From a virus (lineage: Duplodnaviria; Caudoviricetes): a stretch of DNA of 24,615 bases. Positions 11,150 to 18,874 of this stretch are shown here, piece by piece. Below the pieces are notes generated by a model. The model ran no database searches, was not told the origin of the DNA, and was given only the letters and a program-made list of their open reading frames with translations. The stretch is from the IMG/VR virus record IMGVR_UViG_3300022183_000069, positions 1-24,615 of that record; one strand, given 5' to 3'. Made by a program: the position numbers and the translations under genes. Position 1 is the first letter of the stretch; each line of letters begins with the position of its first letter.

Positions 11150-13270
11150 ATGACGCTCAAGATTACGCATAAACACAGCACCGCCACTGGCACGCCACCT
11201 GCAGCGGGTGACATTGATGTGGGTGAGATAGCAATTAACGCGGCGGATGCTGAGCTGTATACAAAGGACACCGCAGGCAATATCCGCAAGTTTCAGAACA
11301 CCACTACCGGCACCGCCGATGGTGTGCAGTTTACGCAGAGCGGCACTGGCGCTGTGCGGCGCACCGTTAAGTCAAAGCTGCAAGATGTGGTGAGTGTTAA
11401 AGATTTTGGTGCGACTGGAGATGGCCTAACAAATGATTTCTCTGCGTTTACAGCAGCCATTGCCGCTTCAAGTGTCATATATGTTCCGGCTGGCACGTAT
11501 TTAATAAATGGAACCGTCACGGCAACTTCTGATAAAACGCTCATTTTGCAAGGCACACTTGACTGCACGGGCGTCAGCACTGCTGTATTACTAAGTGGCC
11601 CAATCGATGTTCAAGGTGGCGGATTTATTGTTGATTACGAGGCAAACCCCGCCGCGCAAAAGCTAAAAATCAGAAATTCAGACACAACAAGTTTTAATCA
11701 ATACATTAACTCGTTGAATCCTTTATGGTTTAATGGGTCAGACATAGGCGAAAAAATAAACAAGGCTTTTCAATGCGGAGGCAACAAAACGACTGTTTCT
11801 GTGCCCTGCGGCACCTACGATCTCACTACAACCATAAATCTAAACGAGACCGTCAACGGACAACAGTTGACATTGCGTGGACAAAGCACAATGTCGCCTA
11901 CTTTTGAGATGGGCGCAAACTCGGCCTTGGTTGGAATCTCAACAGCTGGTTCCGATGAGGGCTACGTGGAAAATGTTCGTGTTCTAGAGACAACAGGATC
12001 ACGGACAGGAGTTGGAATTACGCTTGGCGGTACCAGTCTAACAGTAACCAACTGCTGGTTTAGCAATACAAAGTATGGCATGTTGTTAAATGGTGGGCAA
12101 GGCATTCATGCAAGTAATATTTACGTTGAAGCCTGTGATTATGGCTTGCTTTGCGGCGCTCGATTTGCTGACTACTCGATTTCCGGCATGACTGCAGGCA
12201 CAACAGTTCTGAATAGTCGCTTTCACGAGTGCTATTTATATAATTGTGGAAGCGGTAATAACTTAAAAAAATCTGGACTGCGTGTATCAAATTACAGCGC
12301 ACTTGCTGTAAGCGGTGTCACTGGCGCGATTGCAGAGGGCGATACCTTGACAACTGCCGGCGGCGCCACTGTTCCGGTCGTAAGCATTAACAGTGACAAA
12401 ACCAGCATTTGCGTAGAGATTGACGAAATCAGCGGATCGTTTTCTTCGTCAGAAACGTTCACGACTAGCAGCGGCGGGGCGGGAACAATCGCTAGTGCGC
12501 AATCAAATCAAACTAAAGCGCTAGATTTTTCACAACTTGCTGTAGTCAGCAACGACAGAAACGGGGCGTATATTACAAACGGGCTTGGATTAACAATCCA
12601 AGGACAGTTTAGAAGTAATGGGACAAACGCTGCGACAACATCAGCAGGCATTTATTCACCAAGCGACTCTTTTTCTACAGTAACTATTTGCAATACTCTG
12701 TTTGCAGATCAGGAAGTTAGTGGATCGTCCGGCGGGAATGGTGCTGATATTAGAGGAGGCAGCTTTTCCTTCTTAGGTTGTAATTTTGCTAATCAGCAAG
12801 GAGCAAATCAAACTATAGGCATAAGACGCTCCTCTGGAACTGTGAGTGCTACAGGGTGCATTTTTAGCGGAATTACTACAGCAACTACCGGCACAATCAC
12901 AAAGGTTAACTGTTTTGGAAGTAATGTCGCTAACTCTGACCCTGTTGGCCCCGTTGGCAATTCTCTTGTTTTTGATGTTGGTCCTATCAATGCATCTACT
13001 GTCACTGTGGTCACCAATCAACCATTAACTAATGGGCAGAATGAATCCTGGCGATGCTATGGTCACAACGCAAATGATACACTTGCCAGCTTCTATGTAA
13101 TAAATGTAACAAACGAAGACGGAACAATAGATTCTTTGTCTTTGAATAATGGCACCGGCATCGCTTTTGCAGTTGTAGACAATGGAGATAACACCTACAA
13201 TATCACCGCAACAAATCCTAACGCAAACAATAGATATGCCAAAGGTTACCTGTCCTCTTATGCGTCTTAA
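11150..13270 (+). CDS. Tailspike / receptor-binding protein with a pectate-lyase-like right-handed beta-helix
   Basis: T4 gp36/gp37-like N-terminus (HSTATGTPPAAGDIDVGEIAINAADAELYTKD), linker FTQSGTGAVRRTVKSKLQD, Pectate_lyase_3 motif VSVKDFGATGDG...YVPAGTY, beta-helix repeats. Confidence 0.8.
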   Translation: MTLKITHKHSTATGTPPAAGDIDVGEIAINAADAELYTKDTAGNIRKFQNTTTGTADGVQFTQSGTGAVRRTVKSKLQDVVSVKDFGATGDGLTNDFSAFTAAIAASSVIYVPAGTYLINGTVTATSDKTLILQGTLDCTGVSTAVLLSGPIDVQGGGFIVDYEANPAAQKLKIRNSDTTSFNQYINSLNPLWFNGSDIGEKINKAFQCGGNKTTVSVPCGTYDLTTTINLNETVNGQQLTLRGQSTMSPTFEMGANSALVGISTAGSDEGYVENVRVLETTGSRTGVGITLGGTSLTVTNCWFSNTKYGMLLNGGQGIHASNIYVEACDYGLLCGARFADYSISGMTAGTTVLNSRFHECYLYNCGSGNNLKKSGLRVSNYSALAVSGVTGAIAEGDTLTTAGGATVPVVSINSDKTSICVEIDEISGSFSSSETFTTSSGGAGTIASAQSNQTKALDFSQLAVVSNDRNGAYITNGLGLTIQGQFRSNGTNAATTSAGIYSPSDSFSTVTICNTLFADQEVSGSSGGNGADIRGGSFSFLGCNFANQQGANQTIGIRRSSGTVSATGCIFSGITTATTGTITKVNCFGSNVANSDPVGPVGNSLVFDVGPINASTVTVVTNQPLTNGQNESWRCYGHNANDTLASFYVINVTNEDGTIDSLSLNNGTGIAFAVVDNGDNTYNITATNPNANNRYAKGYLSSYAS

Positions 13271-13317
13271 GCCCGGAACGGCTCAAAACTATTTTGTTCC
13301 TTTGCCCTTTTCCCATC

Positions 13318-13563
13318 ATGCCTTTTTCTGAGTCCTCAACAGAAAAAATTGAAGTATTAGGCGACGGTGTGATTAACTGCCAATGCAATATTTTAATTTA
13401 CAAAAATGACGCGGTTTTTGCCGCCAGCAATGTTAAGTCATGCTATTTTCCCGGACAAGATTTAAGCGATGCACCTCAAATGGTCCAAAAAGCTGCCTCT
13501 GCTTTCTGGACGCCTGAAATCATCGCCGACTATAAAACTAAAGTTGTTTCGGTTGCTTCGTAA
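13318..13563 (+). CDS. Small tail-fibre-associated protein
   Basis: ATG 13318 preferred over TTG 13294. 'EKIEVLGDGVI...IYKND...PGQDLSDAPQMVQKAASAFWTPEIIADYK' resembles small proteins that follow fibre genes in aquatic phages (recollection). TAATG coupled. Confidence 0.6.
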   Translation: MPFSESSTEKIEVLGDGVINCQCNILIYKNDAVFAASNVKSCYFPGQDLSDAPQMVQKAASAFWTPEIIADYKTKVVSVAS

Positions 13564-16295
13564 TGGCCAACATCAAGATCTCCGAGCTAACTGCTCTCAC
13601 CCCGCCTGATGCCGCCGACCTCGTGCCGGTGACAGACAGCAGCGCCAGTCAAACCAAGCGCACCACTGTCGGCGAAATTGTCGGCATCGTGAACGGCGAT
13701 GTTGATGTTGCCAATGACGGCACTGCGACGATCAGCGAGCTGCCGGTCTACAAACTGCAGGATGGCAGCGCTCGCCAGCTGCTGCAGACCGATGCCGCTG
13801 GCACTGGCGTTGAGTGGACCAGCAATGTTGATGTGCCTGGCACGCTGGATGTAACTGGTGCAGCAACGCTTGATAGCACGCTGGATGTAACTGGTGTCAC
13901 CACACTTAACGCTGCACTTAATGTCTCCGGTCTTGCAAGCCTTGACGGCGGCATTGATGTTGATGGTGCGTTTACTGTTGCCGACACCAGCGGCAACATT
14001 GCTACCTCCGGCACGCTCGGAGTTGACGGTCAATCCACGCTGGCTAGTGCTGCAGTCAGTGACTTGATCAGCGGGCGTGTGGTACTGGCGGGCACTAGCG
14101 GTGAGCTAGAGGACAATGCTGGGCTGACCTTTAACGGCACGCAGCTTGATGTTGGTGGTGATGTCGTCATTGCTGGCGATCTAACTGTTGAAGGTGCATC
14201 GACGATTCTTGAAACCGAGACCGTCAAGGTTGAAGACAAAAATATCGAGCTTGGCGTCGTTGCATCACCAACCGATGGCACAGCAGACGGCGGCGGCATC
14301 ACGCTAAAGGGCGCTACCGACAAAACCCTTAACTGGCTTGATGCAACGGATAGCTGGACCAGCAGCGAAAACTTCGATCTAGCTAGCGGCAAAAGCTACC
14401 GCATCAATAACACTGAAGTTCTGAACAGCACCACGCTGGGTAGTGGTGTTACTGGATCTAGCCTCACCAGCGTCGGCACGATCAGCAGCGGCACCTGGCA
14501 AGGCACTGCAATTGATGATGCTTACCTCGACACAATCAGCACTGCAGGTAAAGTCAGCAACAGTGCCACTACAGCCACCAGCGCTAACACCGCAAGTGCA
14601 ATCGTTGCGCGGGATGGAACAGGAAACTTCTCGGCTGGCACGATTACAGCCGCACTAACCGGCAATGCCGATACAGCTACGGCACTTAGCAGCAACAGAA
14701 CATTTGCCGTTACCGGCGACGTTACAGGTACTGTCAGCAGTGACCTAACCAGCGGCGCAAGTATCGCTACATCGATCGCATCAGGTGTGATTGTTGATGG
14801 TGATGTCAACGCCTCGGCTGCGATTGCTGGCACAAAGATCAGCCCAGACTTTGGTAGCCAAGCTGTTACTACCACCGGGTTGATTTCTGCCGATGGAAAA
14901 GTCAGCTTCCCGCTTAGTACGGCTGCCCTGCCATCGCTATATCCAGGGTCTGATACCAACACTGGCATCTATTCACCTGGAGCGGACACAATAGCCATCA
15001 GCACTGCTGGTAGCGAGCGCCTACGAATCGACAGCTCGGGCAACGTGGGGATTGGGACTACGAGCCCCGCTCAAAACATCCACGTAACTGGCAACCAGAC
15101 GCGGATATTTATCGACAGCACTAACTCAAGCAGCAACACAGGGGTTAGTTTTGGTGACAACGGTACAACTGTTGGAGGTGTGCTTTACAGCAACAGCGAC
15201 GACGCATTGCTGTTTCAAACCAATGGAACCACAGAGCGCGTTCGCATCGACAGCTCGGGCAGGCTCTTAATTGGTACGTCTAGTGCGCAAACGATTGGCA
15301 ATAGCCAAGCACAGCTAGAAATTTCGACAGATTCTGCATCTGGCTACGCCCTGTCCTTGAGCCGCTCTGTCACTGATATTTACGGTCCGCAGATTAACCT
15401 TCGATCCACCAGAGGAACAGCCGCTTCTCCTGTAGTCGTTGATAACGGCGATCAACTCGGTTCAATCGCTTTCTATGGATACGACGGAACAGACTCTAAC
15501 CATCAGTTTGCTTCGATTGTGGCTTCAGTTGATGGGACACCTGGAAATAATGATTGCCCAGGCCGCCTAGTGTTCTCCACTACTGCGGATGGGGCGAGTT
15601 CTCCGACGGAGCGGATGAGGATTACAAATGGGGGAAATATTCGCATAGGATCCGCATTGGCATATGCCTCCGAGTTTTTTACTGTAAATAATGGTGGTAC
15701 ACTCGCATCAGAAATTACAGCTTTTGGCGGATCTGGCGGCGTCAATCATAAATTCTATTTCCATAATGGAGCGGCTGGAAATGCTGCTGGTACAGTCTAT
15801 TGGACAAATGCTAACTCCACTACTGGAAGATCTATTAACGCAGGTGGAACAATCAACGCATCAGGCGCGGATTATGCCGAGTACATGGTAAAGGCTGGTG
15901 ATTTTACCATTAATAAAGGTGATATATGTGGAGTTACATCTGACGGTTTACTAACTCTTATTTACCAAGAATCTGCTGGTTTCCTTGTTAAATCCACAAA
16001 TCCTTCATATGTCGGAAATGATGGTTGGGGTGCCGGATATGAAGATGATACTGATGGCTTGGAATTAGTTCGTAAAACTGTTGATCGCATTGCCTTTGCT
16101 GGTCAGGTGCCAGTCAACGTCATGGGCGCAGTTCCTGGTCAGTACATTGTTCCTACTGAGGCTGCTGATGGTGGCATTGAAGGTGTTGCCAAGAATGAAG
16201 CTGACCTAACTCTTGCTGAGTACATGCGTGCCGTTGGTAAGGTTATTGCCATTGAAGATGACGGGCGTGCTCGCATCATCGTCAAAGTCGCTTAG
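13563..16295 (+). CDS. Long tail fibre with a C-terminal intramolecular-chaperone/autocleavage-type domain
   Basis: MANIKISELTAL N-terminus, 12-aa TLDVTG repeats, three ERxRI(DSSG) modules, and a C-terminal 'ASGADYAEY...INKGDI...IAFAGQVPV...GQYIVP...VGKVI' pattern (peptidase G2-like IMC). Confidence 0.85.
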   Translation: MANIKISELTALTPPDAADLVPVTDSSASQTKRTTVGEIVGIVNGDVDVANDGTATISELPVYKLQDGSARQLLQTDAAGTGVEWTSNVDVPGTLDVTGAATLDSTLDVTGVTTLNAALNVSGLASLDGGIDVDGAFTVADTSGNIATSGTLGVDGQSTLASAAVSDLISGRVVLAGTSGELEDNAGLTFNGTQLDVGGDVVIAGDLTVEGASTILETETVKVEDKNIELGVVASPTDGTADGGGITLKGATDKTLNWLDATDSWTSSENFDLASGKSYRINNTEVLNSTTLGSGVTGSSLTSVGTISSGTWQGTAIDDAYLDTISTAGKVSNSATTATSANTASAIVARDGTGNFSAGTITAALTGNADTATALSSNRTFAVTGDVTGTVSSDLTSGASIATSIASGVIVDGDVNASAAIAGTKISPDFGSQAVTTTGLISADGKVSFPLSTAALPSLYPGSDTNTGIYSPGADTIAISTAGSERLRIDSSGNVGIGTTSPAQNIHVTGNQTRIFIDSTNSSSNTGVSFGDNGTTVGGVLYSNSDDALLFQTNGTTERVRIDSSGRLLIGTSSAQTIGNSQAQLEISTDSASGYALSLSRSVTDIYGPQINLRSTRGTAASPVVVDNGDQLGSIAFYGYDGTDSNHQFASIVASVDGTPGNNDCPGRLVFSTTADGASSPTERMRITNGGNIRIGSALAYASEFFTVNNGGTLASEITAFGGSGGVNHKFYFHNGAAGNAAGTVYWTNANSTTGRSINAGGTINASGADYAEYMVKAGDFTINKGDICGVTSDGLLTLIYQESAGFLVKSTNPSYVGNDGWGAGYEDDTDGLELVRKTVDRIAFAGQVPVNVMGAVPGQYIVPTEAADGGIEGVAKNEADLTLAEYMRAVGKVIAIEDDGRARIIVKVA
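13840..13896 (+). repeat. 21-bp exact direct repeat, 36-nt period, in the fibre shaft
   Basis: gcacgctggatgtaactggtg at 13840-13860 and 13876-13896 (TLDVTG twice). Confidence 0.9.
15027..15261 (+). repeat. 16-bp exact direct repeat at the boundaries of a 73-aa fibre module
   Basis: atcgacagctcgggca at 15027-15042 and 15246-15261 (IDSSG), 219 nt apart and in frame. Confidence 0.9.
15564..15624 (+). repeat. Fibre cassette repeat, copy 1 (inside the gene; encodes RLVFSTTADGASSPTERMRI)
   Basis: Colinear with 16289-16349 at an offset of 725. 41/47 identical over 15578-15624, with the last 17 bp exact. Contains TAGT-N7-ACTA at 15568-15582. Confidence 0.9.
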
Positions 16296-16349
16296 TCCCC
16301 TTCACTACTGCTGATGGGTCGTCTTCTCCGTTGGAGCGGATGAGGATTA
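16289..16349 (+). repeat. Fibre cassette repeat, copy 2 (spans the fibre stop codon)
   Basis: cgcttagtccccttcactactgctgatgggtcgtcttctccgttggagcggatgaggatta, with TAGT-N7-ACTA at 16293-16307. Confidence 0.9.
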
Positions 16350-16417
16350 AGTCAGACGGTGCTATGACAAAGATCGAAACCTTAGAACAACGCCTAACTG
16401 ATGCTGGTATCGCCTAG
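16304..16417 (+). pseudogene. Startless, internally deleted remnant of an alternative fibre C-terminus
   Basis: Reads TTADGSSSPLERMRIKSDG-AMTKIETLEQRLTDAGIA*. The first half copies the fibre motif; the second half resembles the terminal coiled coil of S74-type chaperone domains. Confidence 0.75.
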
Positions 16418-16421
16418 CGGC

Positions 16422-16447
16422 AACCCGCCCCGTGTTACAGCGGGGTT
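16422..16447 (+). other. GC-rich stem-loop after the fibre locus (possible terminator or RNA processing site)
   Basis: ccccg-tgttacag-cgggg (16428-16445). Alternative pairing of aacccgc with gcggggtt. Only a weak U tract follows. Confidence 0.4.
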
Positions 16448-16452
16448 CTCAG

Positions 16453-16460
16453 GCTACACT
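16453..16460 (+). promoter_or_regulatory. -10-like box GCTACACT
   Basis: 20 nt upstream of ATG 16481. Confidence 0.45.
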
Positions 16461-16480
16461 AACCCTATTGCTTTTCTTTC

Positions 16481-16801
16481 ATGGCAAACACCTATACCTG
16501 GAAGGTTGCTCAATGCGACCGCACCTTGGCTGATGGCGTAATCTCTACGCTCCATTACACCGTTACAGCCGTAACAGATGATGGCGTCTATTCGGCTGGT
16601 GCGTATGGCTCAATCGGTCTTGAAGCACCTGATCCTGAGACGATGATCCCTTATGACAGCGTAACTGAAGCGAACTGCATCGCTTGGGTACAAGCTGCCC
16701 TTGGTGGTGATGAAAAGGTCACTGAAATCCAAACTGCACTGGATAATCAACTGACTGAAAAGCGCACTCCAACCACAGGAGCCGGTGTTCCCTGGGCCTA
16801 A
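16481..16801 (+). CDS. Conserved small fibre-associated protein
   Basis: 106 aa 'TYTWKVAQCDR...HYTV...GAYGSIGL...IPYDSVTE...AWVQAALG...GVPW'; a family I recall as typically downstream of fibre genes. Confidence 0.7.
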   Translation: MANTYTWKVAQCDRTLADGVISTLHYTVTAVTDDGVYSAGAYGSIGLEAPDPETMIPYDSVTEANCIAWVQAALGGDEKVTEIQTALDNQLTEKRTPTTGAGVPWA

Positions 16802-16875
16802 TAAAACGCCCTGACCCAATGATGCCCAGCAAGCCTGGAGCGGAAGACCAAGAGGCAATAAGCATCAATGGCTAA
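16801..16875 (+). pseudogene. Possible decayed small gene (ATA where a coupled ATG would be)
   Basis: TAATA instead of TAATG at the 16799-16803 junction, then KRPDPMMPSKPGAEDQEAISING*. Resembles the N-terminus of a longer cyanophage family (recollection only). Confidence 0.35.
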
Positions 16876-17008
16876 ACCCAAGCCCCTGAACGGCGCACAA
16901 TTCGTTGTGAGCAAACCAAAAAAAACACGCCAAGGCAACGGTTTAAACAGCAAGTCTTCGCATGGTCGTAAAAACGGGAGGAAGTATCGCGGTCAAGGGA
17001 AAGGTTGA
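16868..17008 (+). CDS. Small, highly basic protein (46 aa; KKTRQG...KYRGQG type), not in the ORF track
   Basis: MAKPKPLNGAQFVVSKPKKTRQGNGLNSKSSHGRKNGRKYRGQGKG*, TGATG coupled to the next ORF. Confidence 0.8.
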   Translation: MAKPKPLNGAQFVVSKPKKTRQGNGLNSKSSHGRKNGRKYRGQGKG

Positions 17009-17136
17009 TGGATTCCCGCACTTACGAAAATTGGAAAAAGGTAAAAGAAGCTCTAGAAAGTGCCGGGAAAACTGACTCCATGTTCTATCGACGAGCTGTG
17101 ACAATATTGAATGGCAAGCCTGACCCGCTAAAGTGA
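17008..17136 (+). CDS. Small hypothetical protein (42 aa), not in the ORF track
   Basis: MDSRTYENWKKVKEALESAGKTDSMFYRRAVTILNGKPDPLK*; coupled start; resembles a cyanophage microprotein family (recollection). Confidence 0.8.
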   Translation: MDSRTYENWKKVKEALESAGKTDSMFYRRAVTILNGKPDPLK

Positions 17137-17620: not shown

Positions 17621-17835
17621 GGCTGCTGAGATTCTCGACACGATCACCATTTGAGGGCTTGAAGCGCGAGATTCAGCGCCGTAAGTTCGAGGCCACGTTA
17701 AAGCCTCGTATCGACGCTGAGGTTGAACGCTGGCATAAAGCACAACCGCCAACTATGCCGCCACCTGAGCGCGTAGACGACCTCCACATAAGATCACCCT
17801 GGAGTAATGACGAACAGCAAACCGATCAGCCTTGA
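17596..17835 (+). CDS. -1 frame extension (79 aa) of the holin-like gene
   Basis: Open frame GLIPADGRWLLRFSTRSPFEGLKREIQRRKFEATLKPRIDAEVERWHKAQPPTMPPPERVDDLHIRSPWSNDEQQTDQP* fills the apparent 200-nt gap. No ATG until 17755; only a TTG at 17659. Confidence 0.65.
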   Translation, partial: GLIPADGRWLLRFSTRSPFEGLKREIQRRKFEATLKPRIDAEVERWHKAQPPTMPPPERVDDLHIRSPWSNDEQQTDQP

Positions 17836-18874
17836 GCAGCTTTTCAGGTACTACAAAGAGTTGCCGCATCAAACCGCAGCGATTCAGGAGCTAGAAGCGG
17901 ATCTAGCTGCCAATGGCTATGAAGTCGCGATGCGTCGCGATCGGGGCTGGTTTGCGACGTGGAGCCAGTCAGGCAAACAGCGCGACTATCAAGGGGCAAT
18001 CGCACTGATCCAGCAGTTTGAAGGCTTCCATCACGATGCGTACCTCTGCCCCGCTGGGGTGTGGTCACTGGGCTGGGGGAACACGACAAAGGCTGACGGT
18101 TCACCGGTAGTTCCTGGCGACCGGATCAGCCAAGAGGACGGCGATGCCCTTTTGCAGAAAACGATTGATGGGATTGTTAGGGTATTGGCCGGGTCGATTC
18201 CGTACTGGTCCGCCATGAAGGAAAATCAGCAATCGGTGCTGATCAGTTTCGCGTACAACCTGGGGAGCTATTTCTACGGGCAACCAGGCTTTGAGACGAT
18301 TAGCCGTTGCCTGCGCGAGCGGACCTACAAGAGCGTGCCGAGTGCGCTGCTGCTCTACTGCAATCCGGGCAGCGCGTTTGAAGCTGGCCTTACGCGCAGG
18401 CGCAAAGCTGAGGGCATGTTGTGGGCTGGGGAACAGGCTGCAGCGCCAGAGCCTGCAAAGATCAGGCCAGAGTCACCATTTAGCACCCGGCTAACGCCAC
18501 ATATCACGCTAGGTGAATTTGCGCTGGGTCAAGAGGCACGCAGGTTTGAGCATCAATACCAAGTGGATATGGCCGCTGAGCTGGCGGCATTCCTTGAGCG
18601 TGTTCGCGTCAGATTTGACGGGAAGCCAATCATCATCACGTCTGGCTACAGGCCACCGGCAATTAATCGCTCAGTCGGCGGAGCAAGCGGATCCGAGCAC
18701 CTGTATCGGTACGGGGAAGGCGCTGTGGACTTTTACGTGCAAGGTGTTGATATTTACGACGTACAAGATTGGTGTGATCAAAACTGGCTTCATAGTCTAG
18801 GATATGGTGCGGATAAAGGTTTCGTTCATCTTGGAATTAGAAAAGGCAGGCCAAGAATACGCTGGGATTATTAA
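17807..18874 (+). CDS. Modular endolysin: N-terminal helical domain + GH24 lysozyme + peptidase M15
   Basis: IQQFEGFHHDAYLCPAGVWSLGWGNT, LISFAYNLG and GLTRRRKAE (GH24); ITSGYRP...GGASGSEH...AVDF...FVHLG (M15 Zn peptidase). Confidence 0.9.
   Translation: MTNSKPISLEQLFRYYKELPHQTAAIQELEADLAANGYEVAMRRDRGWFATWSQSGKQRDYQGAIALIQQFEGFHHDAYLCPAGVWSLGWGNTTKADGSPVVPGDRISQEDGDALLQKTIDGIVRVLAGSIPYWSAMKENQQSVLISFAYNLGSYFYGQPGFETISRCLRERTYKSVPSALLLYCNPGSAFEAGLTRRRKAEGMLWAGEQAAAPEPAKIRPESPFSTRLTPHITLGEFALGQEARRFEHQYQVDMAAELAAFLERVRVRFDGKPIIITSGYRPPAINRSVGGASGSEHLYRYGEGAVDFYVQGVDIYDVQDWCDQNWLHSLGYGADKGFVHLGIRKGRPRIRWDY

Follow-up and report, generated by a model that had tools for sequence, protein, structure and literature searches.

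The usual explanation for mosaic tail-fibre genes of phages is recombination, homologous or illegitimate; dedicated systems of fibre variation are also known, and these either invert stored tips or mutate them. Recombination at conserved motifs in T-even fibres is said to have been reported by Tetart in 1998. Tyrosine recombinases bind inverted arms around a spacer of 6–8 bp and normally require identity of the spacers; integrons are recognized by the integrase IntI and by the features of their attI and attC sites. Of the systems described so far, the Rin shufflon of Bifidobacterium prophages comes closest to the one treated here; in it, an arm-less tyrosine recombinase lies beside a receptor-binding gene (PMC6109161). 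T4-type phages carry PeSLs, promoter and stem-loop units of about 100 bp, which are described without a dedicated recombinase (PMC2839356). The tyrosine recombinase A12 of Synechococcus phage S-LBS1 was taken by Zhong 2018 for a lysogeny integrase, and other putative attachment sites were named for it (PMC6157547). Here, we describe a stretch of 24,615 nucleotides (24.6 kb; the window), which is a genome fragment of a lake phage and constitutes the entire record IMGVR_UViG_3300022183_000069 (Caudoviricetes) in IMG/VR, and whose tail-fibre gene contains short sites with palindromic ends, TAG-N9-CTA. In our opinion, it is somewhat probable that fibre modules are exchanged in frame between phage genomes by an A12-type recombinase acting on sites of equal spacer, rather than inserted in the manner of an integron, as an original prediction made from the window's sequence alone had proposed. 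A search of full texts, few of them from subscription journals, returned no account of these fibre sites.

Conserved sites within the fibre gene

TAG-N9-CTA ranks at the top of 768 triplet-dyad and spacing classes in 80 fibre loci, with 242 occurrences versus 46.8 expected (5.2-fold; the next class reaches 2.06-fold). There are five in-gene types, all in a single reading frame: A (encoding xAIST), B (xGLGT or xGIGT), C (xGIGT), D (LVGTS), and E (LVFST). Each type has its own fixed spacer, and the types follow one another in a fixed order and in one orientation. With the stop-type sites (S) described below included, the order A<B<C<D<E<S holds in 401 of 421 consecutive typed site pairs.

The dyad is conserved as DNA. 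A search by peptide only (LVFSTTADG, in any codons) returned 129 stretches from 6 of the 64 parts of the collection, giving 130 distinct boxes, of which 76 have both arms, 39 have neither, and 15 have one. Among the 122 boxes with enough codons, both arms are present in 70, versus 12.4 expected; thus, the dyad, which the original prediction had treated as a recombination site, is indeed kept at synonymous positions. The spacer, noted there to differ between the two copies, proved to be fixed for each site type, and as fixed as the arms. Moreover, where E is intact (44 genes), both arms are retained by 99 of 118 boxes of the other four types (8.6 expected), as compared with 14 of 236 control positions (14.6 expected). 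In loci not selected on boxes, the majority share of the third codon base is 0.88–0.97 inside E and 0.46–0.76 at neighbouring codons. The first base of the Leu codon immediately outside the E arm is free (0.58), and the edge of silent-position conservation at site D is likewise sharp on the left side. Site A is weak, with both arms present in 11 of 32 such loci.

The window contains an intact site E (TAGT-GTTCTCC-ACTA, encoding LVFST; 15568..15582, + strand) and, on the same strand, decayed sites A (IAIST, 14992..15006), with one mismatch in the right arm, and C (VGIGT, 15046..15060) and D (LIGTS, 15268..15282), each with one mismatch in the left arm. A block encoding ERxRID is found at 15015-15042, 15234-15261, and 15604-15624, and might be an accessory site or a second hot spot. 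At locus L648 (2001-2028), an E box with its usual flanks carries another spacer (LAFAT), as though the spacer alone had been exchanged.

Sites at and behind the stop codon

The fibre gene of the window ends in a stop-type site, S2 (TAGT-CCCCTTC-ACTA; 16293..16307, + strand), which provides the stop codon. The same 15-mer follows unrelated tips in L254, L059, L065, and L076. This 15-mer, or one like it, also terminates the related tips that belong to box-bearing genes (L254, L255, L263, L265, L305); most of the other 67 relatives of the window's tip, which come from other kinds of phage, have no such 15-mer at their end. The recurrence of a related site at fibre stop codons beside unrelated tips, anticipated in the original prediction, is thereby confirmed. 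One stop-site variant is present in 101 distinct contexts, 87 of which place it at the stop codon or at most 10 nt after it, and its flanks recombine freely. Behind the fibre gene, a stop-type site is present in 28 of 40 dyad-type cases, as opposed to 4 of 27 among the remaining fibre genes (p 1e-5). Farther downstream, additional stop-type sites separate small genes, all co-oriented (48 in the same and 1 in the opposite orientation for one variant).

The bases following the stop-site 15-mer are not conserved. For this reason, and because a polymerase of that kind is not annotated in two siphoviruses that carry the sites, a T7-like promoter was rejected as the identity of the stop site; a PF00940 search (0 of 40) lacked a positive control and does not enter this argument. 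Two further arrangements should be noted. Loci L449, L461, L467, L478, L480, L481, L177, and L479 have paired stop-type sites that overlap by TA with no gene between them, similar to an empty cassette, and DSL-LC07 (L532, 13246-13260) has a stop-type-like site distant from the fibre gene, right before an HNH endonuclease gene.

Module sharing between fibre genes

Eleven pairs of loci share an inter-site module at 95% identity or more. The flanks are unrelated on both sides in five of these pairs, where the shared module spans 216–291 bp at 96.5–99.5% identity, and on one side in another five. We compared base by base 40 pairs (not all of them independent) in which near-identity on one flank of a site gives way to unrelated sequence on the opposite flank. 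The switch falls within 8 nt of the 15-mer in all 13 informative pairs at site C and in 4 of 5 at site B, the homology shared at these joints being only about 15–20 bp. Of 77 internal ends of near-identical segments, collected without regard to the sites, 25 lie at sites versus 9.3 expected, part of this enrichment being built in because the sites themselves are homologous.

A tyrosine recombinase beside the site arrays

In S-LBS1, the A12 recombinase gene lies directly behind the fibre stop site, and the fibre gene has sites C, D, and E together with stop-type sites. A12 relatives occur in 194 viral contigs, of which the best 80 (65 distinct) were analysed. In-gene sites lie upstream of the recombinase in 29 of the 30 loci having 2.5 kb of upstream sequence. 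All 123 typed sites near the recombinase are upstream of it and co-oriented, with none in 259 kb of downstream sequence, and a stop-type site is found within 600 bp of the recombinase in 45 of 56 cases (1 of 180 in shuffles). The gene order is fibre, site, recombinase, DUF7936, lysin, with a DUF7936 homologue in 75 of the 80 recombinase loci. The window has the identical gene order with the recombinase slot empty: no PF00589 gene was found in it, in three complete podovirus records, or in a 27.5-kb sister record, nor did a recombinase match turn up in the three records whose sequence in this region is that of the window. Thus, the enzyme sought by the original prediction stands beside such arrays in relatives and is missing from the window's records, its link to the sites being circumstantial.

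The A12-family domain matches PF00589 (E-value 3.5e-13). Residues R142, K176, R238, W258, and Y270, which we take to be those of the catalytic R-K-H-R-H/W-Y motif, are invariant in 20 family sequences, with Tyr at the first His position. According to sequence profiles, the family is a compact clade of 282–294 amino acids with PF00589 only and no arm-binding domain; the nearest outgroup relatives mostly have 350–410 amino acids, and 6 of the 10 scanned contain the arm-binding domain PF12167. The ratio of nonsynonymous (pN 0.11) to synonymous (pS 0.84) change indicates strong purifying selection. A sequence search of PDB with the recombinase gave one weak integrase match (E-value 0.005), and plasmids yielded only distant recombinases (below 60%). 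The recombinase-bearing genomes measure about 35–45 kb and 70–85 kb, and just 6 of 42 share the window's tail hub protein.

The two repeat copies in the window

The layout reported in the original prediction was reproduced in the window, including two colinear copies, their spacing, cores, and frames. The direct repeat spans 15550-15624 and 16275-16349, 725 bp apart. The segments 15564-15624 and 16289-16349 are identical at 50 of 61 positions, or at 41 of 47 when the count starts with the final spacer base. TAGT-N7-ACTA occurs exactly twice in the window (at 15568 and 16293) versus 0.20 expected, and two occurrences were reached in 1 of 100 shuffles. In copy 1, whose core is site E, the TAG is not read in frame; in copy 2, whose core is S2, it is the stop codon.

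By its sequence, copy 2 is a hybrid, in which the arm and spacer of S2 are joined to the right flank of E. Only 2 of 769 typed site contexts are hybrids, the other being an in-frame A-to-E join in L653, and both cross right of the spacer. Behind copy 2 lies a startless tip remnant (16308..16417, + strand), composed of the E-site right flank (to ERMRIKSDG, 16360) and the last 18 chaperone codons (AMTKIETLEQRLTDAGIA*). Intact tips with the remnant's ending have 184–209 amino acids in 12 of 13 cases, so that the remnant is short by about 145–170 codons; the "old tip" said to have been pushed downstream amounts to merely 41 codons behind copy 2. Nor do tandem startless tips recur elsewhere: a profile scan of the first 120 loci and two hybrid-pattern scans (36 loci) revealed no other phage in which a stop site is followed by a startless tip, and the hybrid-pattern matches other than the window phage and L653 were ordinary E boxes or chance. 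Neither an excision joint nor a tip circle was present among the joints given for eight contig runs (15 of 22 in one set), contigs being a form of data that drops rare forms. A GC-rich inverted repeat past the remnant's stop (16420-16450) is common to many other fibre loci. In other contigs of the same samples (L020, L347), what precedes this repeat is a stop-type site and only the final bases of a tip, which suggests further-eroded remnants.

Of the compositional and structural features ascribed to the cassette, some hold in part. The spot values of GC content (0.30 and 0.65) are correct but extreme, and the cassette as a whole is only moderately AT-rich (0.459 versus 0.543 upstream; 0.31 versus 0.53 at third codon positions, GC3). 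Copy 1 does fold into the longer hairpin (-11.6 kcal/mol), but only 24 of 195 E sites have the outer 4-bp stem in full; this extended hairpin, not being conserved, was rejected. Copy 2 folds at -2.4/-2.6 kcal/mol, and there was no Rfam match. The differences between the copies are not adenine-specific, as those of a diversity-generating retroelement would be, and no reverse transcriptase was found among the subset of window proteins scanned, the contig being a fragment. No forward promoter or terminator was called at 15400-16900.

The fibre gene and its surroundings

The genes of the window include those for tape measure, tail, fibre, and lysin proteins, a dCTP deaminase-like protein, and ThyX. 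The mosaic fibre gene, an open reading frame at 13563..16295 (+ strand) encoding 910 amino acids, matches PHROG tail-fibre families (E-value 5.8e-41); a Pfam search with its product gave no match. The tip module between site E and the stop site (15583..16292, + strand) comprises about 100 residues of distal fibre and a chaperone-like domain; its GC3 is below that of the remainder of the gene. As a lead, an Atlas feature match to a Peptidase_G2 cluster (score 0.93) hints that this C-terminus may be a Peptidase_G2-like intramolecular chaperone. The shaft contains 36-nt tandem repeats at 13840-13911 and 14011-14046 (GTLDVTG units). Upstream of the main fibre gene are a second fibre or spike gene with a pectate-lyase-like domain and no typed sites (11150-13270) and a small partner gene (13294-13563). 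Since all 21 isolate records matching the region are Synechococcus phages, including podoviruses, siphoviruses, and large phages, we infer that the host is a picocyanobacterium.

On the downstream side, the intergenic stretch at 16418..16480 (+ strand), the position of the recombinase gene in relatives, is followed by the DUF7936 gene (16481..16801, + strand; PF25590, E-value 7.4e-33), which is what usually adjoins the array on its downstream side. In S-LBS1 (L534, 11201-11460), the end of the DUF7936 gene bears a tandem duplication of about 130 bp. A lysozyme fused to a peptidase M15 domain is encoded at 17807-18874 in the window, and the same fusion is found behind 32 of the 80 recombinase loci. 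A sister genotype (L015/L250, runs X9 and X15) matches the window exactly through the fibre region, apart from a single difference at 13315; its divergence begins at 17076 and represents a strain-level swap of the holin and lysin-side block away from any typed site.

Discussion

We propose that the A12-type enzyme would act on TAG-N9-CTA sites and that the spacer would determine the partner, like recombining with like. Co-oriented and ordered sites with the same arms and different spacers would resist deletion inside one genome, while like-with-like single or double crossovers could take place between genomes; such exchange would stay in frame because all in-gene sites share one frame. The like-with-like model fits the site order, the fixed spacers, the sharing of single modules, and the rarity of hybrids. 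During co-infection, the recombinase may act in trans on phages that lack it, such as the window phage, and the swapped modules would be expected to change host recognition. Copy 2 of the window would then represent a rare mismatched event between S2 and E, with the crossover right of the spacer. It could be a single unequal cross between two genomes or the insertion of an excised tip, the sequence fitting both, and the displaced tip would afterwards have lost most of its length by deletion. The feature itself is real and widespread, and it is probably a new variant of recombinase-driven fibre variation. It seems to us an even question whether the broader formulation also holds, namely that unrelated cyanophage families share a natural modular cloning system, in which a dedicated arm-less recombinase, carried by a minority and serving all co-infecting phages, would use at least six address-coded in-frame sites to swap fibre modules and downstream gene cassettes.

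A number of observations weigh against recombinase-driven exchange, and many of them suit a possible, though doubtful, alternative: homologous or single-strand-annealing recombination at short linkers. The 15-mers would in that case be frozen spellings at domain joints, their TAG and CTA ends inherited or incidental, the recombinase a passenger of a variable patch, and copy 2 a microhomology join, for which the shared right arm at the window junction could serve. Site integrity is the same whether or not the recombinase is present, both arms being retained by 89 of 130 boxes beside it and by 113 of 154 boxes where it is lacking (p 0.43), so a cis effect is absent; this would be expected if modules circulate fast between phages, and equally if the enzyme is irrelevant. 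The enzyme is present in just 1 of 7 isolate genomes having sites, and its occurrence in 8 of 43 dyad-type versus 0 of 28 other fibre records (p 0.019) is a contrast confounded by host. The ERxRID block, which is not palindromic and lies 13–50 nt away, shows silent-site conservation equal to that of the dyad (0.83–0.95). At site D, 2–4 of 9 pairs switch left of the site, and several E pairs are indistinguishable from crossovers in the ERMRI block. Half of the internal segment ends (39 of 77) lie at least 100 nt from any site, and for this reason ordinary recombination also shapes these fibre genes. At the stop sites, right arms are often decayed (C 23, T 26, and A 21 of 32), and sites with different spacers frequently share flanks (59 and 56 pairs), so spacer matching there is loose. 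The machinery for annealing is also at hand, in that S-LBS1 has a single-strand annealing protein and the podoviruses have a single-stranded-DNA-binding protein and an exonuclease, and precedents are offered by T-even fibres and by PeSLs (PMC2839356). Such recombination nevertheless leaves unexplained why five peptides with differing spacers, plus non-coding stop sites, all have the same palindromic ends in one frame, and why the edges at the 15-mer are sharp when so little homology is shared at the B and C joints.

The remaining explanations are, in our opinion, less plausible still. It is improbable that the dyad genuinely serves some other protein, be it a host recombinase, a nuclease, or a DNA-binding protein, by which crossovers are concentrated there, with the phage recombinase serving lysogeny or genome resolution. 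The sites are retained in phages without the recombinase, the restriction of box-matching isolates to Synechococcus phages of several families fits a host factor, and a lysogeny role, the one assumed for A12 by Zhong 2018 (PMC6157547), is compatible with A12 being the sole tyrosine recombinase in 40 of 40 records. However, the E box has no exact match in the bacterial genome collection, where the box-region protein gave one stray contig among 600 candidates; no integration of S-LBS1 was found (PMC6157547); the one provirus-class record runs on beyond the recombinase into tail genes with no boundary; and no candidate factor has been identified. Far less credible is the integron-like scheme of the original prediction, in which circular tip cassettes enter at site E and displace old tips downstream. 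The layout of the window is compatible with one insertion, arrays of small genes divided by co-oriented stop sites do exist, and both hybrids cross right of the spacer. Yet one unequal cross between two genomes yields the same layout, hybrids and startless tips are as rare as stated above, no attC-like fold is seen, and the integron-integrase (IntI) family is absent among the NCBIfam matches of all 20 members, which are weak XerC/XerD matches only; integron-like insertion is the exception. An assembly chimera created by the shared box, an artefact for which the original prediction had allowed, has a practically negligible probability. Many co-sampled phages have the E box, which reaches 1.3 to 18 times the depth of the flanks, and most contigs break there. 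In all freshwater metagenome runs examined, which may include the window's source sample, copy 2 nevertheless lies inside single error-free contigs that pass from copy 1 to copy 2 without differences over the cassette; one contig covers 15300-16700 entirely, and read depth is flat over the cassette. Moreover, three other viral contigs share the layout, with 0, 0, and 1 difference up to 17075, and it is found in contigs that differ beyond 17076.

If exchange by the recombinase is confirmed, the swapping of address-coded modules between genomes would constitute a third route to host-range change, spanning phage families on one host group, and the "lysogeny" integrase of S-LBS1 would have to be reinterpreted. 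A recombinase with many orthogonal short sites would, in addition, be a useful tool. Should annealing at linkers prove correct instead, the shared palindrome in six contexts would still demand an explanation.

Comparison with known systems

Lambda-type lysogeny integrases have an N-terminal arm-binding domain, which the A12 family lacks, and the relevant sections of PMC6157547 make no mention of the fibre sites of S-LBS1. PeSLs (PMC2839356) and the T-even fibre motifs resemble the sites described here as conserved linkers where genes or fibre segments swap; the cyanophage unit differs in having 15 bp, palindromic ends, no tie to a promoter, and a recombinase gene nearby. Integrons are similar in having co-oriented sites at the ends of small genes and a tyrosine recombinase beside the array. 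The cyanophage system, in contrast, shows no IntI match and no folding attC, its recombinase is downstream and co-directional, its sites occur inside coding sequence, and its hybrids are rare. The closest formal parallel to the proposed mechanism is engineered cassette exchange with heterospecific lox or FRT sites, which have the same arms and different spacers, so that a like-with-like double crossover swaps the module. That is a laboratory construct, whereas the cyanophage arms have only 3–4 bp of conserved palindrome and recombination at them is predicted.

Among natural systems of fibre variation, Gin, Cin, and Min likewise make a site-specific change of the distal fibre at an in-gene site; as outlined in PMC6109161, they employ serine invertases and inverted sites, neither of which was found in the cyanophage system. 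Rin is nearer: a short site inside the receptor-binding gene and another immediately past its 3' end are directly oriented, and the C-terminal part is variable; in the same source, its sites are described as identical and asymmetric, 11 bp long and some of them inverted, and its silent tips as stored in cis and flipped in. The arm-less recombinase adjoining the receptor-binding gene, which the two systems have in common, is found in relatives only and is absent from the window's records. In the cyanophage system, by comparison, all 123 typed sites are co-oriented and palindrome-ended, with a spacer for each position and up to five sites in the gene. Silent tips are lacking, the enzyme is absent from most site-bearing phages, and exchange apparently takes place between genomes.

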